Both the position numbers and the translations under genes were made by a program. 32,000 nt of DNA from Acaryochloris marina MBIC11017 (lineage in GTDB: Bacteria > Cyanobacteriota > Cyanobacteriia > Thermosynechococcales > Thermosynechococcaceae). The stretch spans positions 2,130,001 through 2,162,000 of the forward strand of contig NC_009925.1 of assembly GCF_000018105.1 (NCBI RefSeq). Reading direction: 5' to 3'. Below the pieces are notes generated by a model. It was not told where the DNA came from. It was given only the letters and a program-made list of their open reading frames with translations, and made no database searches. Positions 4,517-25,742 of this stretch are shown in pieces (the stretch's first letter is position 1; every line of letters starts with the position of its first letter).

Positions 4517-6790
4517 ATGCAGGCGTTGAATGGGGCCATTCTCTGCATCGCTTGGATAGTCGGCTTACTCTCCACGGCTCATCCTTATAGCTGGCTGGGG
4601 TTGATTGGCTTAGGGCTAGGACTGATGGGAATGCGAGTTATCAGTTTGCGAGTTCCCTGGCCTCTTTTGTACCCCTGGCGACGAGGCCCAAGAGTGGCCT
4701 TTTGGTTATTGGCTTTGGCATGTGCGCTGTTTGCTAGCCTATATTTCTCCGTCCGCACCCCAACCCCAGGCTCAAGAGATATCAGTCGAATCGTCCCTGA
4801 AGTCTCGCGATCGCTAGTGACGGTTACAGGCAAAGTCGAAACCATGCCTCGCTTGACACGCAGTCAAACCGTTCAGTTTCAGCTTCAGGCGTTAAAACTA
4901 GAGGCAAAGCCAACTCAAAAAACGGTTCGTGGCTTACTTTATGTATCCTTACCTCCAAAGCAGGGACAAAAACTACATCCGGGGCAACGGGTAGAAGTGT
5001 CTGGCTATCTTTACAAACCTCGCCGTTCCGCTACCCCCCAAGGCTTTGATTTTGAAGATTATCTGACCCGCTCTGGTATTTTCGCAGGTTTGCGAGGTAA
5101 AACCGTTACGGTCAAGCAGTCTGGAGGCACTTGGGGTGGCTGGGCTGTGCGGCAGCGAATTGTGCGATCGCATGCCCGATTCCTGGGACCTGAAAAAGGT
5201 GCATTAGTCAGCGCTATGGTCTTAGGCCATCGTCGGGTCGATTTACCGTTCAACCTACGCAATCGCTTTGTCAAAGTTGGTTTAGCTCATACACTAGCCG
5301 CTTCAGGGTTCCATGTTTCCATCATTCTCGCGGGACTGCTAAAGGTCACAGGTCGCCTTTCGTCCCGAACTCAACTGATCAGTGGGCTGATCGGACTCAT
5401 CATTTTTATCTTCTTAAGCGGATTTGAGCCCTCGGTTTCCCGTGCGGTTTTAATGGGCATGGCAGGTTTGGCAGCCGTTACGGCCAACCGTAAGTTAAAT
5501 CCAGTTGGCGTATTGCTGGTAGTGGCCGTTGGACTGCTCGTCATCCAGCCCCAATGGATCTGGGATTTAGGATTTCAACTCAGCTTTTTAGCGACATTGG
5601 GGCTGATCGTGACGGTGCCACCCTTAACCCAGAAACTAGATTGGTTACCGCCTGCGATCTCATCCTTATTCGCAGTGCCCATTGCCGCTATGCTGTGGAC
5701 CTTGCCCTTACAGCTCTATCAGTTTGGAATCGCCCCGATTTATTGTTTGCTGGCCAATATTTGCACAACGCCGCTGTTGATTCTGCTAACAGCAGGTGGA
5801 TTTTGCAGCGGTATCGTAGCGGTAATGTGGCCTTTGGCAGGGGGGCTATTGGCTTGGCTGCTGGCGATACCTACCCAAGGGCTGATTTGGCTGGTCACTC
5901 AGATCAGCCTGTTACCGGGAGCCTCCTTAACCCTCGGGACCCTCTCCATTTGGCAATTGGTACTGCTCTATGGGCTGCTGGTATCGGCATGGCTCTTACC
6001 CGTTTGGAAGCAACGTTTACCGCTATTGATAACCTTGGCCTTAGGCATCATCATCCTGCCCATTTGGCATTATCAAGTCTATCGCTTCCAAATCACGATT
6101 TTTGACCGAGCCACACCACCGATGATGGTGATCCAGCAACCCGGATCGACACTGGTATTGAATAGTGGCGATCGCAACACCGCATCACAAACCCTCGTTC
6201 CTTTTTTGCAACGCCAGGGCATTGATCAAGTGGATCTGGCCTTAGCCACAGACTTACGATCTCGCTGGAGAGACGGATGGCCCGCGTTACTCCAGCAGGT
6301 CTCCCTAAAGAAGTTGATTCCCATCTCTTTAACCAACAACACCGCACTACAAGAGCAACTTCTTGGATCTCAGGTCCAACCGGGAAAGCTACGTTTCCTT
6401 CAAGTCGGTGAGCAACTGGTTCAAGACCAAACTCAAATTAGCGTCTTGCGTCACCAACCGACTCTGTTGCAGTTCACTATCAATCAACAAAACTGGCTGA
6501 TGGTTTCGGGTCGGTATCAAGGATTATTACCTTGGCTGCAAACGACCCAAGTCCCCTCGCCGCAAGTGCTATGGTGGTCCACAAAAGTTGATCTAGAAGC
6601 GATTCACCACTTGCAACCTCAAGTTCTTATTCTCACGTCTCGCAATATTGATGCCGAAAGCTTGAGCCAGTTAGAACGCCGAATCTCCAAAGTTTATTGG
6701 ACGCCCAGAGATGGGGCAGTGCAGTGGACTCGCGATCGCGGTTTTGAATCCACCTTCCCCCTTAGTGAAAATCCGGCTTCTCCCCTGTAG
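4517..6790 (+). CDS. comEC: ComEC/Rec2 DNA-internalization channel protein (OB/DUF4131, competence domain, degenerate MBL-fold domain)
   Basis: 757 aa, polytopic. The N-terminal part reads VTVTGKVETMP...GQRVEVSGYLYKP (OB fold). The competence-domain signature is VGLAHTLAASGFHVSIIL...FLSGFEPSVSRAVLM. The C-terminal about 240 aa follows the ComEC beta-lactamase-domain layout but lacks its metal ligands (see findings). Confidence 0.85.
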   Translation: MQALNGAILCIAWIVGLLSTAHPYSWLGLIGLGLGLMGMRVISLRVPWPLLYPWRRGPRVAFWLLALACALFASLYFSVRTPTPGSRDISRIVPEVSRSLVTVTGKVETMPRLTRSQTVQFQLQALKLEAKPTQKTVRGLLYVSLPPKQGQKLHPGQRVEVSGYLYKPRRSATPQGFDFEDYLTRSGIFAGLRGKTVTVKQSGGTWGGWAVRQRIVRSHARFLGPEKGALVSAMVLGHRRVDLPFNLRNRFVKVGLAHTLAASGFHVSIILAGLLKVTGRLSSRTQLISGLIGLIIFIFLSGFEPSVSRAVLMGMAGLAAVTANRKLNPVGVLLVVAVGLLVIQPQWIWDLGFQLSFLATLGLIVTVPPLTQKLDWLPPAISSLFAVPIAAMLWTLPLQLYQFGIAPIYCLLANICTTPLLILLTAGGFCSGIVAVMWPLAGGLLAWLLAIPTQGLIWLVTQISLLPGASLTLGTLSIWQLVLLYGLLVSAWLLPVWKQRLPLLITLALGIIILPIWHYQVYRFQITIFDRATPPMMVIQQPGSTLVLNSGDRNTASQTLVPFLQRQGIDQVDLALATDLRSRWRDGWPALLQQVSLKKLIPISLTNNTALQEQLLGSQVQPGKLRFLQVGEQLVQDQTQISVLRHQPTLLQFTINQQNWLMVSGRYQGLLPWLQTTQVPSPQVLWWSTKVDLEAIHHLQPQVLILTSRNIDAESLSQLERRISKVYWTPRDGAVQWTRDRGFESTFPLSENPASPL

Positions 6791-6824
6791 AATAGGCGTT
6801 AGACTAAACCAAAATCACCAACCT

Positions 6825-6911
6825 GGAGAGGTGGCAGAGTGGTTGAATGCGGCAGACTCGAAATCTGTTTTAGGGTCAAACCTAACGGGGGTTCGAATCC
6901 CCCCCTCTCCG
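6825..6911 (+). tRNA. tRNA-Ser, anticodon CGA (class II tRNA with long variable arm; CCA not encoded)
   Basis: Acceptor stem GGAGAGG (6825-6831) pairs with CCTCTCC (6904-6910), with discriminator G at 6911. D-loop is GCAGAGTGGTTGAATGC. Anticodon stem-loop is GCAGA-CTCGAAA-TCTGT. The T arm is GGGGG-TTCGAAT-CCCCC (6887-6903), and a roughly 20-nt variable arm is present. Confidence 0.9.
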
Positions 6912-7241
6912 TTCTATATCTAGCTGATAGCATACCCATTAAATAGGACTGAGATGTCTGCAGGCAGTGCTCTTAAGGGCATTGAGTGGCAATTTAAATG
7001 GGTTCAGACTAAAGAGCAGACCATCATCCTTGTAACAGATTTAAAAACAAATCGATTCATTAGCAATCGTTCTGATTGTATCTATCATGGCGACACCATC
7101 TTCCTTGGGCCCCTATCTCTCTAATCCAGTGCCCATAACGCATTCGCTATAATAGTATTGGCTTTTCACTCAACAAGCATAAACTGCTCCTGCAGCCACC
7201 AATCGAGGGTGTGATTTGCACCTGAAGTCAGGAGGTTTCTT

Positions 7242-8114
7242 ATGCAGATGCAATCAGGATATTTAGTCGGAGCACAGCAGCACACTCTTTACTATCGGGC
7301 TTGGTCCCCTGAACGCTCCCCTCAAGCTGTAGTAGCAATCGTCCACGGTCTTGGCAGTCACAGCAATACCTTCATCGATGCAGTCAATGCTTTAACTCTC
7401 CAGGGCCATGCTGTATATGGCCTAGATCTACGAGGGCATGGTCACTCTTCTGGGCAGCGAGGCTATATCAACCATTGGTCAGAGTTTAGAGCTGATTTCC
7501 ACATCTTCCTGCAATTCGTTAAGCACCGAAACCCTGACCTTCCTATCTTTGCCTGGGGACATAGTTTAGGGGGTTTGATTGTTCTGGATTACGTCCTACA
7601 TTCCCCCCAGCGATTGATGGGCATGATGATATCCGGTCTACCCATGAGAGTTGTCGGTATTTCACCTTGGAAGCTAGCGATAGCACGTCTTCTATCAAAG
7701 CTATGGCCACGGTTTTCACTGAATACTGGGATCGATCCAGAAAGCAATTCTCGAAATCCAGCCGTCCTGCTAGATCATTCTCAGGATTCACTGCAGCACA
7801 CGCAAGGAACAGCTCGGTTAGCCACTGAATTTCTCCGCATTCAAGCCGAATTACAAGCCCACGCAGCGAATCTCCGTCTACCGCTGTTGATGCTCCATGG
7901 CAGCAACGATCAGACCGCTTCTCTCTCCGAGAGCGTAGCCTTTTTTCAAAAGGTCGGAAGCAAGACCAAACAACATCTGGAATATCCAGGAGCCTTTCAC
8001 GACTTACACGCTGATCTGGATGCCCAAACAGTACTCGCTGATATGAGCCAATGGCTCCGTCAACAGCTAACTTCTTTTGAGAAAAACAAGGACCGACAGC
8101 TTATAGGCATATAG
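7242..8114 (+). CDS. Alpha/beta-fold serine hydrolase, lysophospholipase / monoacylglycerol-lipase type (Hydrolase_4-like)
   Basis: VVAIVHGLGSHS (oxyanion region), nucleophile elbow GHSLGG, C-terminal GAFHDLH. A strong SD, AGGAGG, sits 7 nt before the ATG. Confidence 0.75.
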   Translation: MQMQSGYLVGAQQHTLYYRAWSPERSPQAVVAIVHGLGSHSNTFIDAVNALTLQGHAVYGLDLRGHGHSSGQRGYINHWSEFRADFHIFLQFVKHRNPDLPIFAWGHSLGGLIVLDYVLHSPQRLMGMMISGLPMRVVGISPWKLAIARLLSKLWPRFSLNTGIDPESNSRNPAVLLDHSQDSLQHTQGTARLATEFLRIQAELQAHAANLRLPLLMLHGSNDQTASLSESVAFFQKVGSKTKQHLEYPGAFHDLHADLDAQTVLADMSQWLRQQLTSFEKNKDRQLIGI

Positions 8115-8255
8115 TTAGCCTTTTGTGGTCTCTTCCAAAGAGCGAATGAATTCACGAATGATATCGGTCTTGGTCCGTTGTGTCTTTTTCGCATAGCGGT
8201 CTAATATTTTTAGTTCATGCTCTGGAATTCTTATACAAAGCTGGTTCTGGGCCAT
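8115..8255 (-). CDS. Small ribbon-helix-helix (CopG/Arc-like) DNA-binding protein, 46 aa; absent from the ORF track because it is below the size cut-off
   Basis: Hand translation of the minus strand from ATG 8255 to TAA 8117-8115: MAQNQLCIRIPEHELKILDRYAKKTQRTKTDIIREFIRSLEETTKG. The pattern is a beta-strand (LCIRIPE), helix (ELKILDRYAKK) and helix (TKTDIIREFIRSL), as in RHH regulators and antitoxins. It is divergent from the acyl-CoA synthetase gene. Confidence 0.5.
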   Translation of the reverse strand: MAQNQLCIRIPEHELKILDRYAKKTQRTKTDIIREFIRSLEETTKG

Positions 8256-8509
8256 ATGTATAGATATATGCTATACTGCGATTGTACCTTAAAAATTGTC
8301 ATTCAACGCCACTAGAGCATGTTTTAAGGTTCCAATTCAATGAACGCGCTGTATTGATGCTATTCAGAATTATTCAAGCAGTGCTTCAGCATCGCTCACG
8401 CTCCTTGTTGCTGCAGGAGTAACAATTACACCGCGTAGCTTTGTCAGAAGCCATCTCACATCAATGAAAGCGCGAAATGGTTGAGGAGAACCAGCGCCGT
8501 TTGTGAGAG

Positions 8510-8530
8510 AGAGTCGTCATTAGCGACTCT
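8510..8530. promoter_or_regulatory. Perfect 7-bp inverted repeat AGAGTCG-N7-CGACTCT ending 8 nt before the acyl-CoA synthetase ATG; candidate operator or 5'-UTR hairpin
   Basis: Read directly from the sequence: arms at 8510-8516 and 8524-8530. Any function is inferred only. No SD is visible between the repeat and ATG 8539. Confidence 0.2.
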
Positions 8531-8538
8531 AGCTGATC

Positions 8539-10581
8539 ATGTTTACACCCCATGAGATTTACTGCCCACTCCCGCAGTCTGAACAGGGGCTCTTGGGACG
8601 AACCCTACCGTCACTACTCGATGAAGCCTGCGAGCGTCATCCGAACGCCCAAGCTTTTAATCATTGGACGAAAGAAGGCTGGGAACCTGTCTCATCACAG
8701 GCATTCCGTACAACCACAGAAGAAATCGCTTTGGGTCTAAAAGAACTTGGGCTAGAGGCTGGAGATCGCATGGCCGTACTCATGCACAGTGATGTCAACT
8801 TCTGCCTGGCTGATATGGGCAGTTTGTTGGCCCACCTGATTAACGTCCCTATTTATATGGGTGAAACCCCAGAAAATATGGTGTTTATTATGCAGCATAG
8901 TGGTGCAAAAGCCCTTATGCTGTCTGATTTACAGGTGCTGCAGCACATTGCTCCTTGCCTACATGAGCTATCTACGCTGAAATTCGTTATTGTTGCCAAT
9001 GGCATAGACTCCAAATTCGGCGAGGATTCTTCGATAGAGCTTCAGACTACTCTTCCAGATAGCATTCAACTTGTGTCTTTGCCTTCCTTGCGGATATGGG
9101 GACAAGAGCAATTATCAGACCAATCCCGGAAGCGGTTGCGAGCTGAGATTTCACCTGAAGATGTGGCCACCATAGTTTATGTTGCTGGTGCGACGGGACG
9201 TTGTCAGGCCTTTAGAAGCCAGGTATTACCCATTTTTCAGGCAGTGACATCCCTTAGACAGCGGCTACAGCATGGTGCTCCCTACCTGTGCGAACTTCCA
9301 AAAGGGGTAATGCTCACCCATGAAAATTTGGCAGGGGATGCACTGGCCGCGTTTAGCATTATGCCGGGTCTTCGAACTGGCCCCCAAGAAACAGTCCTTT
9401 CTTTTCTGCCACTCACCCATGTTTTTGCTCGCGTCATGCTGTATGGGCACCTGAACCATGGCCACACTGTTTATTTCACGACTCCCCAACGAATCGTCAA
9501 GCATATTCGGGAGATCAGGCCCACTATCTTATCGACCGTGCCCCGCCTTTTAGAAAAGGTCTATCAAAAGATTCTGGAGCGAGGCCATCACCTGCCCCAT
9601 TTCCAGCAGATGATTTTCCAGTGGGCGATCGATCTAGCGCATAGATACCAATTGGGTTGCCAGTCGCATGGACTCTATGATTGGAAACTTAAACTAGCAG
9701 ACCAGTTAGTGTATCGCCAGTGGCGCAACGGGTTTGGGGGACGGCTTAGGTATCTCCTCTGTGGGGGGGCTGCCCTCAAGTCAGAGTTAGCTACCGTTTT
9801 GTCTGCTGCAGGGATTCCGGTCCTACAAGGGTATGGCCTTACGCAAACGAGTGCTGTGCTTTGTGTGAATCGCGGGGAACTGAATCGAGCTGGCACGGTA
9901 GGAGTGCCTATTCCTGGTGTTGAAATTGAGATCGCACCCGATGGCGAAGTCTTGGCTAAAGCGCCCTATGTGATGAAAGGCTATTACAACAATCCAGTGG
10001 CAACCCAAGAAGCCATTGACGCAGAAGGTTGGTTTCATACCGGCGACTATGGGGAGATAACCGATGAAGGGTTCTTGACCATTACCGGTCAGAAAAAAAG
10101 TCTTTTTAAGTTATCAACTGGCAAGTATGTGGCCCCTGAACGTATTGAGCATCATCTCGTGCAATCCTCGTTAGTAGACTGGGCTTTGGCGGTGGGTAAC
10201 CAGCGCCCTTACTGTGGTCTGCTGATTTTCCCCAATCGACGGAGACTGCACAGACTGGCAAAGAAGCTGGGGGTCCATCTTCCTCTCAACGAGATCGTAG
10301 ACCATCCGCAGATTATCGCTGAATATCAATTACTGGTCGATGCGGCTAATCAGAAACTCCCGGTGTGGTCAAGGGTGAAACGCTTTCGTCTGATACCTGA
10401 AACACTCACTGTTAGGCATGGATTACTGACATCCTCTCGACAACCCGATCGGGAGGCCACCTGTGCGGCCTTTGCTGAGGAGATTGAAGCACTATATGGC
10501 GCTGTTGTGCCTGCGATAACCCAGCCAGTTTCTCCCACTATTCCACCAACATCTGCATCGCTGAGGTTGGAAGCTTCTTAG
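8539..10581 (+). CDS. Long-chain fatty-acid--CoA ligase (ANL/AMP-binding superfamily) with an atypical, interrupted P-loop
   Basis: ANL core motifs are present: LPLTHVFAR, GYGLTQTSAV, GWFHTGDYGEI, GQKKSLFKLSTGKYVAPERIE. The expected TSGTTGxPKG motif reads YVAGATGR-(32 aa)-PKGVMLTHENL. The 680-aa size is typical of the bacterial long-chain acyl-CoA / acyl-ACP synthetase class. Confidence 0.8.
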   Translation: MFTPHEIYCPLPQSEQGLLGRTLPSLLDEACERHPNAQAFNHWTKEGWEPVSSQAFRTTTEEIALGLKELGLEAGDRMAVLMHSDVNFCLADMGSLLAHLINVPIYMGETPENMVFIMQHSGAKALMLSDLQVLQHIAPCLHELSTLKFVIVANGIDSKFGEDSSIELQTTLPDSIQLVSLPSLRIWGQEQLSDQSRKRLRAEISPEDVATIVYVAGATGRCQAFRSQVLPIFQAVTSLRQRLQHGAPYLCELPKGVMLTHENLAGDALAAFSIMPGLRTGPQETVLSFLPLTHVFARVMLYGHLNHGHTVYFTTPQRIVKHIREIRPTILSTVPRLLEKVYQKILERGHHLPHFQQMIFQWAIDLAHRYQLGCQSHGLYDWKLKLADQLVYRQWRNGFGGRLRYLLCGGAALKSELATVLSAAGIPVLQGYGLTQTSAVLCVNRGELNRAGTVGVPIPGVEIEIAPDGEVLAKAPYVMKGYYNNPVATQEAIDAEGWFHTGDYGEITDEGFLTITGQKKSLFKLSTGKYVAPERIEHHLVQSSLVDWALAVGNQRPYCGLLIFPNRRRLHRLAKKLGVHLPLNEIVDHPQIIAEYQLLVDAANQKLPVWSRVKRFRLIPETLTVRHGLLTSSRQPDREATCAAFAEEIEALYGAVVPAITQPVSPTIPPTSASLRLEAS

Positions 10582-10618
10582 GGATTTATTCCTTCCTAAT
10601 TTATGGAGGTTTGCTGTT

Positions 10619-13003
10619 ATGTTGAAACCATTTCGGACCGCTGCTGTTCTCGGTGCAGGGGTGATGGGCACTCAAATTGCCGCCCATCTCGCCAATGCAG
10701 GTTTAGTGGTTTATCTCCTGGATCTGCCTGGGCCTGGCGTCCATAAAAACGCGATTGTAGAAGCTGCTTTCAAAAAAGGTCTGCAGCAAAAACCGCCGAT
10801 TTTCTTTACCGAAAAAACAGCCCGCCGCGTTCTTCTGGGCAACTTTGAGGATGACTGGCATCGCCTAACCCATGTGGATTGGGTGATTGAGGCGGTAGTC
10901 GAAAAGTTAGAGGTCAAGCAACAGCTGATGGCCCGTTTAGAAGGCCACATTCGCGATGATGCAGTGGTGTCAACCAATACCAGTGGGTTATCCATTCAAG
11001 CGATTACTGCAGGTCGCTCCGATTCGTTCCGACGACGATTTCTAGGAACACACTTTTTTAATCCTCCGCGTTACCTGAAGCTCTTGGAACTGATTCCCAC
11101 CATAGAAACGGATCCACAAATTGTGGAGCGGCTGAAGTGGTTTGGACATCTCCATCTGGGGAAAGGGGTCGTGGTCGCCAAAGATACCCCTAACTTTATC
11201 GGCAATCGGATTGGTGTGTTTATCAGTATGTTAGGCATCCGAGCCTTTACGGAACAGGGGTACACCATTGAAGAAATTGATACGCTCACAGGAACCCTGG
11301 TGGGTCGTCCTAAATCTGCAACCTTCCGAACTGCAGATATTGTGGGTCTCGATACCTTACTGTATGTAGCTGAAAATCTCTATCCTGCCATCCCCGACGA
11401 TGAAAATCGTGATGTTTTCCAGGTGCCAGAGATTCTGAGGCGCTTAGTTGAGGCAGGACATCTCGGGTCCAAAACGGGTCAGGGCTTCTATCAAAAAGTG
11501 GGTAAACATATTCTCTCCGTTAACCCACAGACCCTGGCATACGAAAAGGCCCAGTCTCTGCATCTAAGGAACTGGAAGGCCATTGCCAAAATAAAACCCC
11601 TTCCCGAACGCCTGCGAACCCTCTATCAAGATTCCGGTCGAGCGGGAACATTTTTCCGGCAAATGATGCTGAAGATCTTGAGCTACAGTGCCCATCGGAT
11701 TCCTGAAATTGCCGATCATCCCCTCGACATTGATCAGGCTATGCGCTGGGGATTTGGTTGGCAGTTGGGTCCCTTTGAAATCTGGGATGCAATTGGTTTC
11801 AGTCAGGTGATCCAAGATATGCAGGCCGCCGGGATTGTTGTACCCCAGTGGGTAGAGAAAATGCAGCTTGCCGAGATTGATAGCTTCTATCAAAACATTG
11901 GTCCTAACGGGGAGCGGTTTGTCTATCAACCCCTGCATGGCTATCTACCCACGGAAGGGCCTCAAGATGAATTGACGGTGGCCCAGTTCAAGACTGATCC
12001 AGCCCGAACACTGTGGCAGAACGCCGAGGCGGCTTTGCTTGATATTGGCGATGGTGTAACGCTGTTTGAGTTTCGCTCTAAGGGCAATACCCTCGGTCAA
12101 GTGGTAGTAGACGGTTTCTCAGAAGCCTTAGATATCGTTGAGGCGGGCGACTATCGCGGCTTGGTGATTGGTAATGACGGGGAGCATTTTTCTGCTGGGG
12201 CCAACCTAGCAGACATGATCAAGTTCTCGCACCAAGACAAGGTCAATGTCTTTACAGATTGTGAGCATGGTGCCATTGCCCATCTCCTCGATCAGTTTCA
12301 GGCCCTGATGCTGCGAATTCACTATTTTCCCAAGCCGATTGTGGCAGCGATTCGAGGGCGAATCTTAGGGGGTGGCTGTGAGCTGGTGATGGCTTCTCCC
12401 CATGTGGTGGTAGCGGCTGAGACCTACATTGGTTTGGTGGAACTCAGCGTCGGTCTTATCCCCGGTGCAGGTGGCATTATGACCATGGCGACTTGGGCTG
12501 CTGAACAGGCTGCCAGTGATGCCCCCAGAGATATTCAGCCGTTTTTAAAGCAGGCTTTTGAGCATATTGGTATGGCAAAGGTGGCAAGCAGCGCCCATGA
12601 AGCTCAAGCGTGGGGATATTTACCTCCAACAGCTCAGATTGTTATGAATAGCGATCGCCGTTTGTACGTCGCCAAGGAAGAAGTGTTGCGCCTAGATCAT
12701 GAGAGCTACGTCCCCCCACCCAAACGCAATGCAATCCAGGTGTTGGGCAAACCAGCCCGCGCCCTGTTTGAAACGGCGGCCTACCAGATGCAGCAAGGAG
12801 GCTATATCTCTGACTATGATCGCTTCCTCGCCAATCGGTTGGCCTATGTATTGACAGGCGGTGATCTGTCAGCACCAACGTTGGTCTCTGATGATTATCT
12901 GCTGGGCTTAGAACGTGACATGTTCTTACCCCTGTTCTCAGAGAAGAAAACTCAGGAACGGATTCTGCATACGTTGAAAACGAAAAAGTCTTTACGGAAT
13001 TAG
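10619..13003 (+). CDS. fadN: Bifunctional 3-hydroxyacyl-CoA dehydrogenase (N-terminal) / enoyl-CoA hydratase (C-terminal), FadN-type domain order
   Basis: N-terminal part: AVLGAGVMGTQIA Rossmann motif, EAVVEKLEVKQ, VSTNTSGLSI, THFFNPPRYLKLLELIP. C-terminal crotonase fold: GEHFSAGANLADM, GGGCELVMAS, GLVELSVGLIPGAGG. GGAGG SD lies 9 nt upstream. The gene starts 37 nt after the ligase gene. Confidence 0.85.
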   Translation: MLKPFRTAAVLGAGVMGTQIAAHLANAGLVVYLLDLPGPGVHKNAIVEAAFKKGLQQKPPIFFTEKTARRVLLGNFEDDWHRLTHVDWVIEAVVEKLEVKQQLMARLEGHIRDDAVVSTNTSGLSIQAITAGRSDSFRRRFLGTHFFNPPRYLKLLELIPTIETDPQIVERLKWFGHLHLGKGVVVAKDTPNFIGNRIGVFISMLGIRAFTEQGYTIEEIDTLTGTLVGRPKSATFRTADIVGLDTLLYVAENLYPAIPDDENRDVFQVPEILRRLVEAGHLGSKTGQGFYQKVGKHILSVNPQTLAYEKAQSLHLRNWKAIAKIKPLPERLRTLYQDSGRAGTFFRQMMLKILSYSAHRIPEIADHPLDIDQAMRWGFGWQLGPFEIWDAIGFSQVIQDMQAAGIVVPQWVEKMQLAEIDSFYQNIGPNGERFVYQPLHGYLPTEGPQDELTVAQFKTDPARTLWQNAEAALLDIGDGVTLFEFRSKGNTLGQVVVDGFSEALDIVEAGDYRGLVIGNDGEHFSAGANLADMIKFSHQDKVNVFTDCEHGAIAHLLDQFQALMLRIHYFPKPIVAAIRGRILGGGCELVMASPHVVVAAETYIGLVELSVGLIPGAGGIMTMATWAAEQAASDAPRDIQPFLKQAFEHIGMAKVASSAHEAQAWGYLPPTAQIVMNSDRRLYVAKEEVLRLDHESYVPPPKRNAIQVLGKPARALFETAAYQMQQGGYISDYDRFLANRLAYVLTGGDLSAPTLVSDDYLLGLERDMFLPLFSEKKTQERILHTLKTKKSLRN

Positions 13004-13044
13004 GAGACTCAACCTTAGCCCTCACAAGAGACGAGGTACATCAA

Positions 13045-14226
13045 ATGAATAACGCATATATCGTCAGTAGTGTCCGCACTGCCGTTGGCAAAGCCCCCAA
13101 AGGTGCACTGCACCATAGCCGCCCCGATGACTTGGGTGCCGTTGCTGTTAAGGGCGCACTAGATACCGTCCCCAAACTTGAGATCGATCAAGTTGATGAT
13201 CTGATAATCGGCTGTTCCTTCCCTGAAGCTGAACAGGGGTTCAACTTGGGGCGCGTGATTGCCCTGCGGGCAGGGCTTCCCCACTCCGTTGCTGGCTGCA
13301 CCGTGAATCGCTTTTGTTCGTCGGGGTTACAAACCATTGTTATGGCCACGCAAGCGATTATGACAGGTCAGGCAGAGGTGATCGTGGCTGGGGGAGCTGA
13401 ATCTATGAGTCTGATCCCGATGGGGGGACATTACCTGACGCCCAATCCAGATCTACTGTCTGAGATTCCTGAAGCCTATTTATCGATGGGGCTAACGGCA
13501 GAGAATGTGGCCGAAGAATTCCAGATTTCTAGAACTGATCAGGATGCTTTTGCCTTGCGATCGCATCAAAAAGCCCTGGCTGCCCTTGAGAAGGGACGGT
13601 TCAAAGACGAGATTATTCCCTTTATGGTCAAGGCAACCACCTTAGTAGAAGGACAACTCCACACCACCCAAACCGTGTTCGACGTCGATGAAGGCCCCCG
13701 TGCTGACACCAGCCTTGAAGCCTTAGCTCAGCTCAAGCCGGTCTTTAAGGTCGATGGTACCGTCACGGCGGGCACCTCTTCCCAAATGTCGGATGGGGCA
13801 GCAGCAACAGTTGTAATGAGTGAGCGTAAGGTCAGAGAATTGGCCCTTGCACCGCTAGGCCGAATGCTGGGCTACTCCGTGGTAGGGGTACCACCGGAAC
13901 TGATGGGTATGGGTCCAGTGGAGGCAGTACCCAAGGTACTGAAGCAGGTGGGGTTATCCCTCAGTGATATTGGCTTGATTGAGCTGAATGAAGCCTTTGC
14001 GGCCCAGGCCTTAGCGGTTATGCGAAAGCTAGGTTTGGATGAAGGCATTGTCAATGTGAATGGTGGTGCGATCGCACTTGGTCACCCATTGGGCTGCACA
14101 GGAGCAAAATTGACTGCCACCCTACTGCATGAGATGAAGCGTCGGGGCATTCGCTATGGTCTGGTGACTATGTGTGTTGGAGGCGGCATGGGTGCTGCAG
14201 GTGTCTTTGAAAACTTGATGTTGTAG
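13045..14226 (+). CDS. fadA: 3-ketoacyl-CoA thiolase (acetyl-CoA C-acyltransferase), degradative type
   Basis: [23 protein letters not shown], active-site Cys in [39 protein letters not shown]. The gene starts 41 nt after fadN. Confidence 0.9.
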
Positions 14227-14268
14227 TTGTTTTGCTGTCTATGCTCAATGCTTTGCACTGGCCCCCTA

Positions 14269-14410
14269 CCCCCCCAATCCTGGGGGGAAAGATGCATAGA
14301 CCTGAGACTTCGCTTTTCCTTCTCTCTGAGTGCTCTCATTAAGGCGTGCAGCACATACAGGGTAAAACTCCAGACTTCATACTCCCCCCAAAGTTGGGGG
14401 GCCGGGGGGG
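14269..14410. repeat. Two copies of a G/C hairpin motif, CCCCCAA-N3-TGGGGGG, in the fadA-fadE spacer
   Basis: Copy 1 lies at 14269-14287 (core cccccaaTCCtgggggg). Copy 2 lies at 14384-14401 (core cccccaaAGTtgggggg) and is followed by CCGGGGGGG to 14410. The arms are identical and the loops differ. Neither copy has a U-tract. Confidence 0.5.
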
Positions 14411-14509
14411 CAATGCAGGGCTAAACGGCTCAACTCTCTAGTCCAATTCTCCAACTGGATATGCCGATTGTCCTAAATCAAATATTCGTCTGTTGCCATG
14501 GAGGTTGTT

Positions 14510-16984
14510 ATGACTGTTATCAATACTGTGATGGCGGATGGCCGACCGGAGATCATCGCACTCGCCACCCTCTCCCTAATCATCCTATTGGGATATATCG
14601 GTGTCCCACTGTGGGGCTGGTCGCTATTCGCTGCTGCAGTCCTCAGCCTCAGCCATCCACCAATCTGGATATGGAGTCTGTTTCTCGTCGTAGCGCTGGT
14701 GTTCAATGTCCCTTGGCTTCGCCAAAAACTACTCACGTCCTTCGTCGTAAAAACACTCCAAAATCTCAAAATCTTTCCCAAAATTTCAGAGACGGAGAAA
14801 GCTGCAATCGAAGCGGGGAACGTCTGGGTCGATGGTGAATTTTTCGCCGGGAAACCCAATTTTGAACGCATCCTTAACGAACCTTATCCCCAACTCACCC
14901 TTGATATCCAAGCTTTTCTAGATGGCCCTGTTGAGCAAGTCTGCCGGATGGCCAGTGACTGGGAAATCTATCAGCGCCAGGATCTTCCGCCCGACGTCTG
15001 GACTTATCTCAAACAAGAGCGGTTCTTTGGCATGATGATTCCCGAAGAATACGGAGGGCTGGGCTTCTCGAATCTGGCCTATAGTGCTGTAATGGCCAAA
15101 CTGGCCTCCCGCTCCTTTACCCATGTGGCGACAGTTGGCGTTACCAACTCTCTGGGGCCTGCTAAACTTCTACTTCGCTATGGCACCAAGGAGCAGAGAC
15201 ATCACTATTTACCTCGCTTAGCCAGGGGTGAAGAGATCCCCTGCTTTGCCCTCACGGAACCCAAAGCTGGATCAGATGCGGCCAGCATTACGTCTAGTGG
15301 AGTGGTGTTTAAGGGGGAGGATGATCAGCTCTACCTCAAACTCAATTGGAACAAGCGCTATATTACCCTGGGTGCCATTGCAACCATCCTTGGCCTTGCC
15401 TTCCAACTTCACGACCCTAACAATCTTCTGGGTAAAGGGGAACACCCTGGTATTACCTGTGCTCTGATACCGACCGAAACATCTGGCGTCATTCATAACC
15501 GTCGCCACGATCCCATGGGCGTCCCCTTCTATAACTCACCGTTAGAAGGCCACGACGTCATTGTCCCGATTGGGCAGATCATTGGTGGCATTGAACAAGC
15601 AGGTCAGGGTTGGAAAATGATCATGCAGACCCTGGCAGCGGGTCGTGGGATTAGCTTCCCAGCCACTTGTACAGGGGTGACTAAACTGGTGGCTCGCGTA
15701 GCAGGTGCCCATGCTGTGGTCCGCAAACAGTTTGGTTTATCCATTGGCCGCTTTGAAGGGGTTGAAGAACCTCTAGCCCGGATTGGGGGATTCACTTACA
15801 TGATTGATGCGGCCCGCCTCTATACCTGTGGCGCAGTAGATCAAGGCGAACAGCCTGCGGTGGTATCCGCAATCGCAAAATCCCAAACCACAGAACTAGC
15901 TCGTCGCGTCGTACTGGATGGAATGGATATTCTGGGGGGAGCCGGGATTTGTCGAGGGCCACGAAACCTATTAGCCAATATCTACACGGCCATGCCAATT
16001 GCCATTACCGTGGAGGGGGCAAATATTCTGACGCGATCGCTGATGATATTTGGCCAGGGTGCGATTCGCAGTCATCCTTATATTTACGATGAGATTTTAG
16101 CCTTAGAGCAGTCGGATGTAGCTGCCTTTGATCAGGCTTTCTGGTCTCACCTTGGCCTGATCGTCCGTAACGGCGTTCGGGCTGGTCTGTTATGCCTGAC
16201 GCGAGGGCGGCTCACTCGTTCTCCTGTCCAAGGCGAAACGGCAATGTACTATCGCAAGTTAGCCTGGGCTGCAGCGACCTTTGCTAACTTCAGTGATTTA
16301 GCCATGCTGTCATTGGGGGGTTCTCTGAAGCGTCGAGAAAAACTCACTGGGCGCTTTGCAGACATGCTTGCCTGGATGTATCTGGGGTCAGCAACACTCC
16401 GGCGCTTTGAAGCTGAAGGACAACAGGTGAAGGATTTACCCTTAGTGCATTGGCCGATGCAGTATGCCTTTTCCCAAATTCAAAAGGCAGTTGAAGGCGT
16501 GATCTATAATCTCCCGATCCTAAGTGCTGGCCTGCGCCACCCCATTTTAGGGCTGTGGCGACTGAGTCCCCTTGGAACAGAGCCATCTGATGAATTGGGG
16601 CATCAGGTTTCTCAGATCCTATTGATGCCTGGGCCGGAACGGGATCGACTCACTCGTGATATTTATCTTCCCAATCACACTGAAGAAGCGGTGGGTCGCC
16701 TGGAAGAAGCTTTACGCTTATCAGTGCAGACAGCCTCTATCCTTAAAACCATTAAGAATGCCATAGCAAGAGGGCAACTTCCTCCATCCAAACCTTCGCA
16801 GCTGGTCGATAAAGCCCTTGAGGAAGGAATCATCAACACTCAAGAAGCCAGATCTCTCCAAAAAGCGGAAATCTCACGTAGCAATACCATTCAAGTGGAC
16901 TCATTTACATTAGAGGAGTATCAACAGAGAGATGCCATAGCTGTGGACTCACCAATTTTCAAACAGGTCGTAACAGGAAGTTAG
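14510..16984 (+). CDS. fadE: Large membrane-anchored acyl-CoA dehydrogenase, E. coli FadE type
   Basis: Track ORF starts at 14498, but that ATG overlaps a GGAGG (14500-14504) placed 5 nt before ATG 14510, so 14510 is preferred. The N-terminus has two hydrophobic helices followed by ISETEKAAIEAGNVWVDGEFFAGKPNF, which parallels E. coli FadE. The ACAD core reads FALTEPKAGSDA, with a long C-terminal extension; the protein is about 824 aa. Confidence 0.85.
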   Translation: MTVINTVMADGRPEIIALATLSLIILLGYIGVPLWGWSLFAAAVLSLSHPPIWIWSLFLVVALVFNVPWLRQKLLTSFVVKTLQNLKIFPKISETEKAAIEAGNVWVDGEFFAGKPNFERILNEPYPQLTLDIQAFLDGPVEQVCRMASDWEIYQRQDLPPDVWTYLKQERFFGMMIPEEYGGLGFSNLAYSAVMAKLASRSFTHVATVGVTNSLGPAKLLLRYGTKEQRHHYLPRLARGEEIPCFALTEPKAGSDAASITSSGVVFKGEDDQLYLKLNWNKRYITLGAIATILGLAFQLHDPNNLLGKGEHPGITCALIPTETSGVIHNRRHDPMGVPFYNSPLEGHDVIVPIGQIIGGIEQAGQGWKMIMQTLAAGRGISFPATCTGVTKLVARVAGAHAVVRKQFGLSIGRFEGVEEPLARIGGFTYMIDAARLYTCGAVDQGEQPAVVSAIAKSQTTELARRVVLDGMDILGGAGICRGPRNLLANIYTAMPIAITVEGANILTRSLMIFGQGAIRSHPYIYDEILALEQSDVAAFDQAFWSHLGLIVRNGVRAGLLCLTRGRLTRSPVQGETAMYYRKLAWAAATFANFSDLAMLSLGGSLKRREKLTGRFADMLAWMYLGSATLRRFEAEGQQVKDLPLVHWPMQYAFSQIQKAVEGVIYNLPILSAGLRHPILGLWRLSPLGTEPSDELGHQVSQILLMPGPERDRLTRDIYLPNHTEEAVGRLEEALRLSVQTASILKTIKNAIARGQLPPSKPSQLVDKALEEGIINTQEARSLQKAEISRSNTIQVDSFTLEEYQQRDAIAVDSPIFKQVVTGS

Positions 16985-17093
16985 GCAAACAGGGTCCAAG
17001 GCTTCAAACATGAGATCTACTGTCAGACCTCATGGAAGTTCAACCGTGAACCCAAGGTGTAAAGGTTTTTGAGCTTGTGAACAGGACTATGGC

Positions 17094-20045
17094 CTATTTA
17101 GCCTCCATCCAGTTAGCTCCAGTATGTACTTCAGCTACCAGGGGAATACTGAGGGGGAGTGCCGTCTCCATTGTGGTTTTGATTTGCGATCGCACATCGT
17201 CCACTTCATCCACAGGGACTTCCAACACTAATTCATCATGAACCTGCATCAGCAGTCGACTCTTATAGGGTTCAAGAGCAGCCTGGAGTTGAACCATGGC
17301 AATTTTAATTAGGTCAGCACTAGACCCTTGGATGGGAGCATTGGCTGCTGCCCGCAGCAGACCTCGATCATAGCTACTCATTTTGATATCGCTGAGATCG
17401 ACTTCTGCTAACTCTTCTAGAGCTTTACCGCGATATTTTTTCAAGCCCCGACTATCAAACTCAAAATAGCGTCGGCGTCCAAGAATCGTTTCCACATAAC
17501 CTTGGCTCACCGCTTCTCGCTCCATCCGCTGCAAATAGGCAAAAACCTCTGGATAGCGATCATAGAACCGCTGAATAAAGTCTTTGGCCTCGCTATATTT
17601 AACCCCAGCCTCACGGGCAAACCGATGGGGGCCCATGCCATAGATAACACCAAAGTTGATAATCTTCGCTAATCGTCGTTCCTCGGCTGCAATCTGATCT
17701 TTTTCCAACAGCAATTGGGCCGTCAGAGTGTGAACATCCTGACCATTCCGATAAGCCTCTAATAGCCGTGGCTCTTGGCTGAGGTGGGCAAGAATCCGCA
17801 GCTCAATTTGGGAATAATCCGCTGCCATCAGGATCCAGCTCGATTCGGGAATAAATGCGGCTCGGATTTGACGGCTAAATTCAGTCCGAATGGGAATATT
17901 CTGCAAGTTGGGATTCGAGGAAGACAGGCGTCCCGTCGCAGTCACCGCCTGATTAAAGTCCGTATGGATGCGGTGGGTATCGTCCCTAACCAGCATCGGC
18001 AACGCATCCACATAGGTGGATTTGAGTTTAGCTAAGGTTCGATACTCCAACAGCACATCGATAATCGGATGATCACCCTGCAGTTTTTCCAAAGTGGCGG
18101 CATCCGTAGAGTAGCCCAGCTTGGTCTTGCGGGACTTCTTAACATCCAGCTCTAGGCGGCCAAACAGGATTTCACTCAACTGCTTAGGGGAGCCTAAATT
18201 GAAGATTTCTCCGGCTAGCTCATACGCCCCGGCCTCCAATCGCTGGAGATCAGCCTCTAATTGGGTAGAGAGGGTTTGCAAATACTCTTGGTCAATGCGA
18301 ACGCCTGATGTTTCCATCACCGCCAACACCGCTTCCAAAGGCAGCTCTACTTCCTGAAATAGGCCATGCAATGAGGGAATCGCAGCCAGTTCAGCTTCCA
18401 GCTTCTCTCTTAGCTGATAGGTGGTGAATACATCTAATCCACAATATTCTGCTACTTGGGTAATGGACAAGTCGGCAATGGTTTGCCCTTTTTTGACCAA
18501 TTCCTTATAGCTTTTTGCCGTTATTTGCAGATAATTTCGAGAGAGATCCGTCAGGTTATGGCTACGTTCGGGATTTAGCACATAATTAGCCAGCATCGTG
18601 TCAAAAACAACGCCCTGAAGCTGAATTCCCTGGAACTGAAACACTAATCGATCAAATTTGGCATTTTGGAGCACCTTGGGATAGACATCACTTTCTAGAA
18701 TGGGGCGTAACCCTTCCAGGGCTGTCTCAAGATCTAAGTTGTCGCCCTCTTTATGGCCAACCGGGATATAGGCAATCGCCTGTTCCTCCCCCTGCCAACA
18801 ACAGCCAATACCGACGAGATGAGCATCTCGGGGGGAAAGGCTATCGGTTTCCGTATCCCAAGCCACAGGTTGATTGCCATCGGTGCACGATTCCAAAATC
18901 GTGATTAACTCTTTCAACTTGGCAGGCGTATCCACAATTCGAGGAACCAATTGAGGGGGTGGCGGCGTTTGGACAGCCTCAGTATCTTCAGCACTAAAAA
19001 ACCAGGTGTCATCTCCATCGTCTGTAACCGGAGATGCAGTAGGGGCAGGTGGGGCGATGGCTTCTCCCCCAAACTGCTTTTGTAGCTGGTTAATTTGGCG
19101 CAGGAAAGACTGAAATTCTAGCTTCTCCAGCACAGGAGACACCTTATCCGAGGTGAAACCTTTGAGTTCAAAGTCTTTTGGCCCCACCTTTAAAGGCACG
19201 TCCAAAACAATGCGAGCCATAAATTGAGAATGATAGGCAGCCTCTTTGCCCGTGATCAGTTTTTTCTGAACGGCTCCTTTAATCTGGTCAACCGAGGCAT
19301 AGATGTTGTCGAGGGTGCCGTACTCCGTCAGCAGCTTAACGGCAGTTTTATCGCCAATCCCCTTCACCCCCGGAATATTATCGGACGAGTCTCCACAGAG
19401 GGCTTTATAATCGACAATCTGCTCAACGGTAACGCCCATCTTTTCCTGGACTTCGGTGGGGCCAAAGGACCCTGGTGGGGCTCCACTCCGAGAGGCAGCA
19501 CTATAAATATTGCTCATATAGAGAATGCGAACCCGATCGTCAGGCTGAACCAGCTGAAATAAATCGCGATCACCGCTGAGGATCTTCACCTTAAATCCTT
19601 GCTGACTCGCCTGATAGGCCAACGTGCCTAGCACATCATCCGCTTCATACCCCGGCTCAACCACAATGGGCAAATCCATAGCGGTCAAAAGCTCTTGCAA
19701 ATTTTCTAGATCTGGGATGAAGTCTTCGGGGGTTTCGGCTCGGTTGGCTTTATAGGTTTCATCGGCTTTATGGCGAAAGGTCGGTCCCCCCAAGTCAAAG
19801 GCAATGGCTAAATAATGGGGTTTCTCGGTCTTCAGTAAATCCAGTAGGTTCTTAAGAAACCCATAACAGACACTCGTGGGAATCCCTGTGGAGGTTCGTA
19901 ATCCACCTTCTCGGCCTTTGGCAAAGGCATAGTAAGCCCGAAAGGCCAGGGAATGTCCGTCAACCAAAACCAGGGTGGGCTTGGAGTTTGCGCTTGCAGA
20001 AGACTGAAGTGCAGCGGGTGCTGGGGAAGTAGAGGTGGGAGTCAT
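17094..20045 (-). CDS. polA: DNA polymerase I (5'-3' exonuclease, 3'-5' exonuclease and polymerase domains)
   Basis: 983 aa. 5'-nuclease region: LVDGHSLAFRAYYA, GDSSDNIPGVKGIGDKTA. 3'-5' exonuclease region: VAWDTETDSL. Polymerase motifs: DYSQIELRILAH, RRLAKIINFGVIYGM, QVHDELVLE. Confidence 0.95.
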   Translation of the reverse strand: MTPTSTSPAPAALQSSASANSKPTLVLVDGHSLAFRAYYAFAKGREGGLRTSTGIPTSVCYGFLKNLLDLLKTEKPHYLAIAFDLGGPTFRHKADETYKANRAETPEDFIPDLENLQELLTAMDLPIVVEPGYEADDVLGTLAYQASQQGFKVKILSGDRDLFQLVQPDDRVRILYMSNIYSAASRSGAPPGSFGPTEVQEKMGVTVEQIVDYKALCGDSSDNIPGVKGIGDKTAVKLLTEYGTLDNIYASVDQIKGAVQKKLITGKEAAYHSQFMARIVLDVPLKVGPKDFELKGFTSDKVSPVLEKLEFQSFLRQINQLQKQFGGEAIAPPAPTASPVTDDGDDTWFFSAEDTEAVQTPPPPQLVPRIVDTPAKLKELITILESCTDGNQPVAWDTETDSLSPRDAHLVGIGCCWQGEEQAIAYIPVGHKEGDNLDLETALEGLRPILESDVYPKVLQNAKFDRLVFQFQGIQLQGVVFDTMLANYVLNPERSHNLTDLSRNYLQITAKSYKELVKKGQTIADLSITQVAEYCGLDVFTTYQLREKLEAELAAIPSLHGLFQEVELPLEAVLAVMETSGVRIDQEYLQTLSTQLEADLQRLEAGAYELAGEIFNLGSPKQLSEILFGRLELDVKKSRKTKLGYSTDAATLEKLQGDHPIIDVLLEYRTLAKLKSTYVDALPMLVRDDTHRIHTDFNQAVTATGRLSSSNPNLQNIPIRTEFSRQIRAAFIPESSWILMAADYSQIELRILAHLSQEPRLLEAYRNGQDVHTLTAQLLLEKDQIAAEERRLAKIINFGVIYGMGPHRFAREAGVKYSEAKDFIQRFYDRYPEVFAYLQRMEREAVSQGYVETILGRRRYFEFDSRGLKKYRGKALEELAEVDLSDIKMSSYDRGLLRAAANAPIQGSSADLIKIAMVQLQAALEPYKSRLLMQVHDELVLEVPVDEVDDVRSQIKTTMETALPLSIPLVAEVHTGANWMEAK

Positions 20046-23174: not shown

Positions 23175-23260
23175 AGCCCATACCCTCCTTCGCCCTGCCC
23201 GGCTCCCCCTCAGTGCTTCCAGGCAGTTGGCGATCTATTCACCTTCATCTGAGAGACACT

Positions 23261-24397: not shown

Positions 24398-24552
24398 AAC
24401 AGACATAGACTAGAATCAATCCTTTCCTTCAGCCCTTAGGGAAATGGATTTCGGAGCATGAAGTTATTCTCCTAGAAACTCGCCTAGGCGTATATACTGG
24501 TTTAGGCATCAAGAAACTTTACAAATCATAAATTCAGTAAGAATGGGCGGCA

Positions 24553-25671: not shown

Positions 25672-25742
25672 GCACAAGGTAAATTTTCTAAACTTAAAAC
25701 TAACGCCAGCCTTCATCTGCCGACATCTGAGAGTGAACATCC

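Follow-up and report, generated by a model that had tools for sequence, protein, structure and literature searches.

Conserved beta-oxidation genes of cyanobacteria, seen in Acaryochloris marina, are linked to a lipase-type hydrolase and a ligase-like protein with degenerate catalytic motifs

Bacterial systems that resemble the locus described here include the FadN(FadB)-FadA-FadE enzymes of Bacillus subtilis and Staphylococcus, the FadE of Escherichia coli and, among cyanobacteria, a set of genes in Chlorogloeopsis fritschii. We analysed a stretch of 32,000 nucleotides from the chromosome of Acaryochloris marina MBIC11017 (NC_009925.1, positions 2,130,001 to 2,162,000; hereafter the window, whose own numbering is used throughout), in which a hydrolase gene (hyd), an ANL-superfamily ligase-like gene (acs) and the genes fadN, fadA and fadE follow one another on the plus strand. 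An earlier annotation of this DNA made from the letters alone (the sequence-only reading) had seen here a complete beta-oxidation set, which model cyanobacteria are described as lacking, and reviews do say this of cyanobacteria at large: a 2023 FEMS review states that beta-oxidation gene sets were 'never reported' for cyanobacteria (PMC10114076), and a 2025 paper lists FadB, FadE and FadI as absent (PMC11730487). In 129 KEGG genomes, fadB was absent from all and fadE, fadN and fadA from 'most', and the pathway was concluded to be absent (Figueiredo et al, 2021; PMC8252387). As FadN substitutes for FadB, however, a missing fadB is not decisive.

In C. fritschii PCC 9212, the genes UYEDRAFT_05556-05553 were named fadD, fadN, fadA and fadE and listed under beta-oxidation; far-red light raised their transcripts 8.6- to 11-fold, and in rfp mutants the rise was 15- to 70-fold (Ho & Bryant, 2019; PMC6424891). 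A 2024 study observed a like trend in strain PCC 6912 and doubted the pathway (PMC10830646). Gene names and order in PCC 9212 match those of the window, whereas the evidence there is at the transcript level, and neither the lipase and ribbon-helix-helix (RHH) genes nor the degeneracy of 'fadD' was remarked upon. The presence of the cluster is therefore not new, as it is publicly annotated, has been called beta-oxidation in Chlorogloeopsis (PMC6424891), and 'most' rather than all genomes lack the fad genes (PMC8252387). New are the breadth of the cluster, its strict conservation next to a lipase gene and an ancestry of the Rhodothermales type; foremost among the new findings is the degeneration of the 'acyl-CoA synthetase' throughout the clade, under continued selection. 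We consider it moderately probable that the cluster is a conserved cyanobacterial module by which acyl chains are removed from lipids and beta-oxidised, and that its linked ligase-like protein does not adenylate.

The five open reading frames (ORFs) lie at 7242-8114 (hyd), 8539-10581 (acs), 10619-13003 (fadN), 13045-14226 (fadA) and 14498-16984 (fadE), with gaps of 37 nt between acs and fadN and 41 nt between fadN and fadA. Shine-Dalgarno sequences precede fadN (GGAGG, 10 nt 5' of the ATG) and fadA (GAGG, 9 nt 5' of the ATG). A further GGAGG at 14500-14504 marks the ATG at 14510 as the likely start of fadE, which would then span 14510-16984 and encode 824 aa, as in RefSeq (WP_238549211; ABW27164 has a shorter start), and the upstream in-frame ATG at 14498 gives an 828-aa ORF. 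The ORF positions, the gaps, the presence of ribosome-binding sites and the FadE length of about 824 aa had been given correctly by the sequence-only reading, and the motifs that it named (GHSLGG, GAGVMG, HFFNPP, GGGCEL and CVGGGMG) are present in the translations.

FadN (AM1_2148, ABW27162) comprises an N-terminal NAD-dependent 3-hydroxyacyl-CoA dehydrogenase and a C-terminal enoyl-CoA hydratase of the crotonase type, matched in Pfam by 3HCDH_N (5e-42, residues 8-190), 3HCDH (1e-22, residues 193-292) and ECH_1 (4e-16, residues 486-634). The best NCBIfam model is Staph_FadB (NF052272; 5e-194), which it matches with 646.6 bits, under the cut-off of 999; judged from this match, FadN has a predicted Staph_FadB architecture and belongs to a distinct lineage. 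In alignments with the FadB proteins of Pseudomonas fragi and E. coli, the catalytic His and Glu (H145 and E157) and the two Glu residues of the crotonase domain have their counterparts, and the key residues S122, H145, E157, N196, E588 and E608 are invariant in 61 of 61 cyanobacterial orthologues. FadA (ABW27163) is a degradative 3-ketoacyl-CoA thiolase (Pfam Thiolase_N, 1e-73, and Thiolase_C, 3e-48; TIGR01930, 465 bits against a cut-off of 240), whose catalytic residues C91, N315, H347 and C377 are likewise invariant (58/58).

FadE combines an acyl-CoA dehydrogenase (ACAD) core (Acyl-CoA_dh_N/M/1: PF02771, PF02770 and PF00441) with ACDH_C (PF09317, 1.4e-97) and reaches 1046 bits with PRK09463, whose cut-off is 600. 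The E. coli model FadE_coli (NF038187) is matched over its full length with 893.8 bits, under its cut-off of 1300, whereas the Bacillus FadE model gives only 98 bits. The catalytic Glu, E506 when counted from the ATG at 14498 and E502 from that at 14510, aligns opposite the Glu of ACAD9/VLCAD 'FEGTNEI' and is present in all 50 cyanobacterial orthologues compared. The E. coli-like N-terminal anchor proposed by the sequence-only reading is seen as two hydrophobic segments (about residues 16-46 and 47-75, with Kyte-Doolittle windows above 1.6 centred on 25-37 and 56-66), the FadE_coli alignment starting from residue 22. On these grounds, FadE is a predicted membrane-anchored, long acyl-CoA dehydrogenase of the E. 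coli type. All five genes show low ratios of nonsynonymous to synonymous substitution (dN/dS, 0.05-0.25 overall), with values of 0.08-0.25 against the closest relative (locus L001) and of 0.05-0.15 against the deeper loci L002 and L003.

The enzymes thus divide their likenesses between two described systems. The order of a dehydrogenase-then-hydratase FadN, a thiolase and an acyl-CoA dehydrogenase is that of Bacillus subtilis and Staphylococcus; by contrast, the FadE here is a membrane-anchored protein of about 820 aa of the E. coli type with ACDH_C, and the cyanobacterial loci carry no linked etfBA or TetR-type FadR gene. With E. coli FadE it shares the N-terminal hydrophobic region, the ACAD core with its catalytic Glu and the C-terminal ACDH_C domain, but fadE is solitary and FadR-regulated in E. 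coli, whereas the cyanobacterial gene belongs to an operon-like cluster. No partner electron-transfer flavoprotein (ETF) is known for E. coli FadE, and its C-terminal domain is suspected of a part in electron transfer (PMC9329746). As a dedicated ETF is likewise not found linked at the cyanobacterial loci, such a role of the C-terminal domain would fit a phylum without a linked ETF.

The hydrolase (ABW27159) is a cytoplasmic alpha/beta hydrolase of the monoacylglycerol-lipase or lysophospholipase type (Pfam Hydrolase_4, PF12146; 2.4e-65), with H35 in an HG oxyanion motif and a triad of S108 (in GHSLGG), D223 and H253. Its best solved homologue is the monoacylglycerol lipase (MGL) of Mycobacterium tuberculosis, Rv0183 (1.4e-36), followed by the human (about 1e-25) and yeast enzymes. 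The Rv0183 and human matches are full-length, and both proteins share with hyd the Hydrolase_4 fold, the HG oxyanion motif and the GxSxG Ser/Asp/His triad. In contrast to these lipases, the cyanobacterial hydrolase would more plausibly act on lyso-galactolipids or lysophosphatidylglycerol. Of 47 cyanobacterial orthologues, 46 retain the triad (H35, S108, D223 and H253 are each found in at least 46), and 38 of the 47 complete cyanobacterial clusters have hyd upstream of acs, both genes on one strand. Directly upstream of hyd, 19 loci carry a second hydrolase with DUF1400 and a PAF-AH/PETase/chlorophyllase-like domain. In the Leptothoe/Adonisia/Leptolyngbya PCC 7375 clade the ORF of this second hydrolase measures about 800-840 aa, and Pfam searches with two forms of about 800 aa (L031, 4830-7346, and L049, 4883-7339) revealed the DUF1400 lipase fused to an MGL-type hyd domain. 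This fusion is a separate line of evidence for a joint function of lipid deacylation and the fad genes.

We scanned one genome per GTDB species for FadN and recovered 80 loci, 64 of them cyanobacterial. The cluster occurs in at least 64 cyanobacterial species-level genomes, from Nostocales, Leptolyngbya-like groups, Pleurocapsales, Elainellales and Acaryochloris. FadE homologues about 70% identical to that of the window are found in Nostocales, Fischerella, Calothrix, Scytonema, Chlorogloeopsis, Leptolyngbya-like genera, Pleurocapsales, Kovacikia, Oculatella, Trichocoleus and Symploca, and the syntenic cluster of C. fritschii PCC 6912 (L005) encodes proteins 45-74% identical to those of the window. 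In every cyanobacterial locus that is not cut by a contig end (47/47), acs, fadN, fadA and fadE are colinear on one strand. When all ORFs of the window and of the 64 cyanobacterial loci were clustered, only the five genes and, in 19 loci, the DUF1400 lipase emerged as conserved components. No conserved ETF or ETF-quinone oxidoreductase (ETF-QO), TetR/FadR regulator, enoyl-CoA isomerase, dienoyl-CoA reductase, or second or canonical ligase lies near the cluster in the 64 loci, a result that concerns linkage only. Other shared neighbours (purD, a histidine kinase and a helix-turn-helix protein) are confined to one clade, and we therefore read them as synteny by descent. Residue counts and synteny thus support the sequence-only reading as far as FadN, FadA, FadE and the hydrolase of lipase type are concerned: all four are intact and linked, and they are conserved. 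Among cyanobacteria the cluster is not rare but common.

The fourth activity, fatty-acid activation, presents a different picture. Pfam confirmed the families of the encoded proteins, including that of the ligase-like protein (AM1_2147, ABW27161), which matches AMP-binding with 193 bits (7e-57) in two stretches and also AMP-binding_C_3; no NCBIfam model, however, was matched by AM1_2147 above its cut-off. The canonical phosphate-binding loop of motif A3 (P-loop) reads [ST][ST]G[ST][TS]GxPKG, whereas in AM1_2147 it begins as YVAGATG, is interrupted by an insertion of 32 aa (residues 221-252; nt 9199-9294) and resumes as LPKG. Motif A5 reads GYGLTQ, with Q436 in place of Glu, G517-Q518 replaces the Asp-Arg of the DRKK hinge motif in A8, and A10 (TSSRQPDR) has Q635 in place of the catalytic Lys of TPTxK. 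Motif A7 is intact (T501-G502-D503, with the ribose-binding Asp), and TGD is found in 120 of 120 close homologues. The ANL adenylation motifs reported by the sequence-only reading are therefore not intact, as the P-loop, A5, A8 and A10 are all altered. Of its beta-oxidation set, the part formed by FadN, FadA and FadE stands; the completeness of the set is not borne out, catalytic residues being missing from the ligase, one of the four activities, and retained in the other three.

To place these changes, we compared the motifs in 120 close database homologues and in the 150 nearest representatives of 1.84 billion proteins. Among the close homologues, the A8 Arg is absent from 119, the A8 Asp from 112 and the A10 Lys from 83, so that about 30% retain the latter; the A5 Glu is kept in 89 and absent from 31, and is not kept in the Acaryochloris clade. 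A canonical P-loop was found in a single one of the 120, and insertions of 30-90 aa occur there in several lineages of the family, whose P-loop appears to be a tolerated insertion hotspot. Nostocales proteins have no P-loop insertion, yet they too lack the A8 Asp-Arg and the A10 Lys. The wider set served as a control: about 125 of the 150 representatives are canonical at all four motifs, with [DG]R at A8 in essentially all of them, whereas degeneracy is confined to the roughly 22 that stand closest to the query, which shows that the motif loss is specific to the clade of the query. The named members of the degenerate clade are all cyanobacterial (one is named among the degenerate representatives, a 'Synechococcus sp.' metagenome-assembled genome, MAG), whereas syntenic orthologues in Rhodothermales, Blastocatellia and a Clostridia MAG are canonical (YTSGTTGxPKG, GYGLTE, TGD, DRKK and TPTLK(V)(K/R)R). 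Separately, we noted that the homologues P0144-P0155 represent independent lineages with different inserts of 30-90 aa exactly at the P-loop position, the insert of P0152 being low-complexity and repetitive.

The ligase-like gene is still under purifying selection and not decaying, as indicated by dN/dS values of 0.10-0.14 within Acaryochloris, near those of fadN, fadA and fadE. Its ORF is intact in all species, the 32-aa P-loop insertion is itself conserved, and a KKxxFKLxxGKY block that includes the lysines K519, K520, K524 and K529 is invariant. The AlphaFold2 model of AM1_2147 has an ANL fold (predicted local distance difference test score, 76.7), with low confidence in the P-loop insertion, the A5 loop and the A8 hairpin, and Foldseek matched it at about 1e-31 to the A domain of carboxylic acid reductase and also to luciferases, 4-coumarate:CoA ligase (4CL) and FadD13; such a predicted structure shows the fold but cannot decide activity. 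Aligned with firefly luciferase, AM1_2147 has its invariant K524 and G528 at the K-x-K-G of the hinge motif of that enzyme, at residues that we take to be K443 and G446, and Q635 falls opposite what is presumably the luciferase adenylation lysine, K529. In luciferase, K443 and G446 act in the second half-reaction. Acetyl-CoA synthetase, luciferase and 4CL no longer adenylate once their A10 Lys is mutated. The residues lost and kept in AM1_2147 suggest a protein that has given up adenylation and retained elements of the thioester conformation. Compared with FadD15/ACSL-type synthetases, AM1_2147 shares the fold, the AMP-binding and AMP-binding_C_3 domains, the TGD motif and the A8 hairpin, but has an interrupted P-loop and is without the A5 Glu, the A8 Asp-Arg and the A10 Lys. 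It is most likely not a classical adenylating enzyme and probably has a non-adenylating role, for example in acyl or CoA binding, scaffolding or thioester handling. As the protein is probably unable to adenylate, the acyl-CoA must come from another enzyme.

A different interpretation takes the set as complete, with the ANL protein acting as an active but unusual long-chain acyl-CoA synthetase with a re-wired ATP site, so that the cluster alone would turn fatty acids to acetyl-CoA. We regard it as unlikely, although several observations speak for it. The gene is colinear with fadN, fadA and fadE everywhere, its Chlorogloeopsis orthologue is co-induced with theirs (PMC6424891), it is under purifying selection, and the ANL fold and the TGD and GYGLT motifs are retained. 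Moreover, the four invariant lysines of the A8 hairpin could substitute for the lost residues and might keep AM1_2147 active, and the homologues that have the A10 Lys, about 30% of the family, also have a partial GxTGxPKG loop; both facts weigh at the same time against the non-adenylating protein that we favour. Against an active ligase stands the joint change in AM1_2147 of four conserved catalytic elements that are essentially invariant in about 125 of the 150 nearest representatives, together with the near-universal loss of the A8 Arg among close homologues, the P-loop insertions in several lineages, which are typical of relaxed constraint, and the loss of adenylation in A10 Lys mutants of other ANL enzymes mentioned above.

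Cyanobacteria possess an acyl-ACP synthetase (Aas), which activates free fatty acids onto acyl carrier protein (ACP). The linked ANL protein might be a novel type of enzyme or adaptor that joins this acyl-ACP pool to CoA-dependent beta-oxidation, either by shifting acyl groups between thiols, as in acyl-ACP to CoA transfer, or by delivery of acyl-CoA to the membrane-bound FadE, a proposal that we hold to be rather improbable. It would have abandoned adenylation but retained the A8 hairpin, which serves in the thioester-forming conformation. If true, it would explain how a phylum built on acyl-ACP runs a CoA-based degradation. Identity of the ligase-like protein with Aas itself (slr1609), which the 2024 study implies for 'fadD' (PMC10830646), was rejected by logic and not by comparison with the Aas sequence: Aas must adenylate and the residues for this are gone here, and the Rhodothermales syntenic orthologues are of the canonical CoA-ligase type.

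In the lipid-degrading module that we propose, hyd would act on membrane or storage lipids that are already partly deacylated and set fatty acids free, and in some lineages the second, DUF1400 lipase, sometimes fused to hyd, would participate. The membrane-anchored, E. coli-type FadE would then oxidise acyl-CoA, and, as no ETF genes are linked, it presumably gives the electrons to the quinone pool without ETF. FadN would hydrate and dehydrogenate and FadA would cleave, and from this succession we infer a catabolic flux whose products would be acetyl-CoA, NADH and reduced quinone. Energy or carbon limitation may induce the module, in the way that the Chlorogloeopsis orthologues respond to a far-red shift.

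Several further points weigh against this proposal. The orthology of UYEDRAFT_05553-56 rests on gene names, gene order and the PCC 6912 cluster, not on sequence comparison, and the in vivo functional evidence is limited to the co-induction of these orthologues (PMC6424891). Labelling studies without a beta-oxidation signal used strains that probably lack the cluster (PMC8252387), and hence neither support nor refute the pathway. At the loci neither a canonical acyl-CoA synthetase nor ETF/ETF-QO, enoyl-CoA isomerase or dienoyl-CoA reductase is linked, and for want of these linked auxiliary enzymes the complete breakdown of polyunsaturated cyanobacterial acyl chains is unproven. Finally, in the plasmid-borne copies of two sister strains, described below, acs is split at about aa 248, within the P-loop insertion, and fadN is spread over 2-5 frames, with fadA and fadE left intact. 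Such breaks could mean that the module is dispensable in Acaryochloris, or could reflect long-read assembly errors.

That the cluster serves an anabolic or specialised purpose rather than general fatty-acid catabolism has in our view a slim chance of being correct; such purposes would include reverse beta-oxidation, the supply of polyhydroxyalkanoate (PHA) or secondary-metabolite precursors, and the turnover of a single kind of lipid, for instance hydrocarbons or glycolipids. Every reaction but the FadE step is reversible, many cyanobacterial natural products are derived from fatty acids (PMC8252387), and a degenerate ligase could indicate an unusual entry substrate. In the 64 cyanobacterial loci, however, the cluster is not linked to any polyketide synthase, nonribosomal peptide synthetase, PHA-synthase or hydrocarbon genes, and its conserved partners are lipases. 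In addition, the E. coli-type FadE represents a family of dehydrogenases dedicated to catabolism, the orthologue transcripts rise under energy limitation while those of fatty-acid synthesis genes fall (PMC6424891), and the sister clusters belong to heterotrophic Rhodothermales.

This sister relationship emerged from a neighbour-joining tree of concatenated FadN and FadA (1174 columns, 100 bootstraps), in which the cyanobacterial proteins are monophyletic (100/100) and sister to those of Rhodothermales (100/100), and in which the cyanobacterial subclades follow taxonomy. The Rhodothermales loci (L056, L057 and L059) have the same acs-fadN-fadA-fadE order, a FadN-type enzyme and an E. coli-type FadE, and their FadN, FadA and FadE are 53-62% identical to those of the window. 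They differ in having tightly packed genes, no upstream lipase and a fully canonical ligase (YTSGTTGQPKG, GYGLTE, DRKK and TPTLKVRR), which matches AMP-binding in one continuous stretch with 241 bits. As Rhodothermales already combine the same gene types, the 'mosaic' that the sequence-only reading saw in this set predates the cyanobacterial clade and is not peculiar to this organism. The cyanobacterial cluster probably goes back to one ancestor, which it has in common with an acs-fadN-fadA-fadE operon of the Rhodothermales type. HIP1 palindromes (GCGATCGC) had been taken to argue for long residence in the genome, and long residence in the phylum fits this monophyletic clade. The four sites named within the cluster (12651, 13557, 14068 and 16033) are present, 15 occur in the window where 0.42 are expected, their density is alike within and outside the cluster, and the GC content of the cluster matches the surrounding genome. 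Consistently, a composition scan of the window revealed no anomaly and no sign of recent transfer at the cluster.

Very unlikely, in our judgement, is a further possibility, namely that the Acaryochloris cluster is a decaying or dispensable accessory island, a functionless relic. It draws on the variable flanks among close relatives, on a tRNA-Ser gene that directly precedes the cluster, and on copies borne by plasmids of 210-277 kb in Acaryochloris sp. 'Moss Beach' (pMB02; L081, 7991-17442) and, twice, in A. marina S15 (L082), which are 85-87% identical to the window cluster at the nucleotide level and in which acs and fadN are frameshifted. These frameshifts could, however, be long-read assembly errors, and in the window all ORFs are intact, the catalytic residues of FadN, FadA and FadE are all retained, and the dN/dS values given above are low. 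The cluster has moved within Acaryochloris: its flanks in the window differ even from those in the closest MAG, which suggests an insertion at the site between tRNA-Ser(CGA) and polA. The tRNA gene lies at 6824-6912, the cluster starts about 330 nt after it and ends 110 nt before the convergent polA (gap, 16985-17093), and neither an att-like repeat of the tRNA 3' end, nor other flanking repeats, nor an integrase was found there. Island integration at tRNA-Ser was accordingly ruled out as a supported reading by the lack of an att-like repeat and an integrase. We give next to no credence to a recent horizontal mosaic with fadN-fadA from Firmicutes and fadE from Enterobacteria, which the best NCBIfam models (Staphylococcus FadB for FadN and E. 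coli-type FadE) might evoke, as it is contradicted by the single taxonomy-congruent cyanobacterial clade with its Rhodothermales sister group of the same four gene types, by the roughly 70% identity of FadE across cyanobacterial orders, and by the GC content and HIP1 density that match the surrounding genome.

Between hyd and acs, on the minus strand, lies a gene for a 46-aa RHH (CopG-family) protein (8115-8255; ABW27160), which is convergent with hyd and divergent from acs and matches Pfam RHH_1 (PF01402) with 26.3 bits against a cut-off of 20.5. Other Acaryochloris loci, a Xenococcaceae MAG and one further MAG have a counterpart at the same position, with 77-100% identity. It is far more conserved than its neighbours: at the Xenococcaceae locus (L018), acs is only about 50% identical and hyd has no qualifying match. 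The palindrome GTATAG-N7-CTATAC (8256-8277, read on the RHH strand) abuts the RHH start codon and is the sole long invariant block in an alignment of the RHH-acs spacer from five Acaryochloris loci and one Xenococcaceae locus. We infer from this position that it is a possible operator or promoter, and the RHH protein is a candidate local regulator and a candidate autoregulated repressor of the cluster.

The spacer between fadA and fadE (14227-14509, plus strand) is structured, with two CCCCCC-N6-GGGGGG hairpins (about 14270-14287 and 14384-14401) followed by a G-run. Its predicted RNA fold has an energy of -97.8 kcal/mol (z = -2.57), and none of 200 shuffled sequences was as stable. This spacer could act as an intercistronic processing, stability or attenuation element, or could be a small repeat insertion. 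Promoter and terminator scans of 6700-17300 returned site numbers not above those of shuffled sequence, and an Rfam scan yielded tRNA only, with no riboswitch or known leader.

Upstream in the window lie mdh, ndhO, comEC and tRNA-Ser(CGA), and downstream polA, gltA, ndhA-I-G-E and uvrA. These core neighbours place the cluster in the main chromosome of this chlorophyll-d cyanobacterium, and together with the excess of HIP1 sites they agree with the cyanobacterial chromosome location given by the sequence-only reading. The hydrolase, RHH, ligase-like, FadN and FadA proteins are identical to A. marina MBIC11017 database entries (within ABW27159 to ABW27164). Among the core genes are three ORFs without a Pfam match, at 21016-22188 (minus strand, 390 aa), 20561-20932 (plus strand, 123 aa) and 31041-31337 (minus strand, 98 aa). 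Citrate synthase and then ndhA-ndhI-ndhG-ndhE occupy 23144-27295, and malate dehydrogenase and ndhO occupy 1435-2710, so that genes linked to acetyl-CoA entry, NADH and quinone stand within 10 kb of the fad cluster. As the flanks are not conserved at other loci, this nearness is probably a coincidence.

The generalisation that cyanobacteria have no beta-oxidation holds for the model strains and not for the phylum, and isotope-labelling and free-fatty-acid production strategies have been built on the assumed absence of beta-oxidation genes. A caution for automated annotation also follows, since KEGG (K01897) and RefSeq ('long-chain fatty acid--CoA ligase') assign CoA-ligase labels to proteins without the catalytic lysine. 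Two concrete questions arise: which enzyme activates the fatty acid, and what the pseudo-ligase does. Many cluster-bearing cyanobacteria are benthic, symbiotic, facultatively heterotrophic or far-red-adapted, and the module would allow them, in limiting light, to turn membrane lipid into acetyl-CoA and to gain NADH and reduced quinone.

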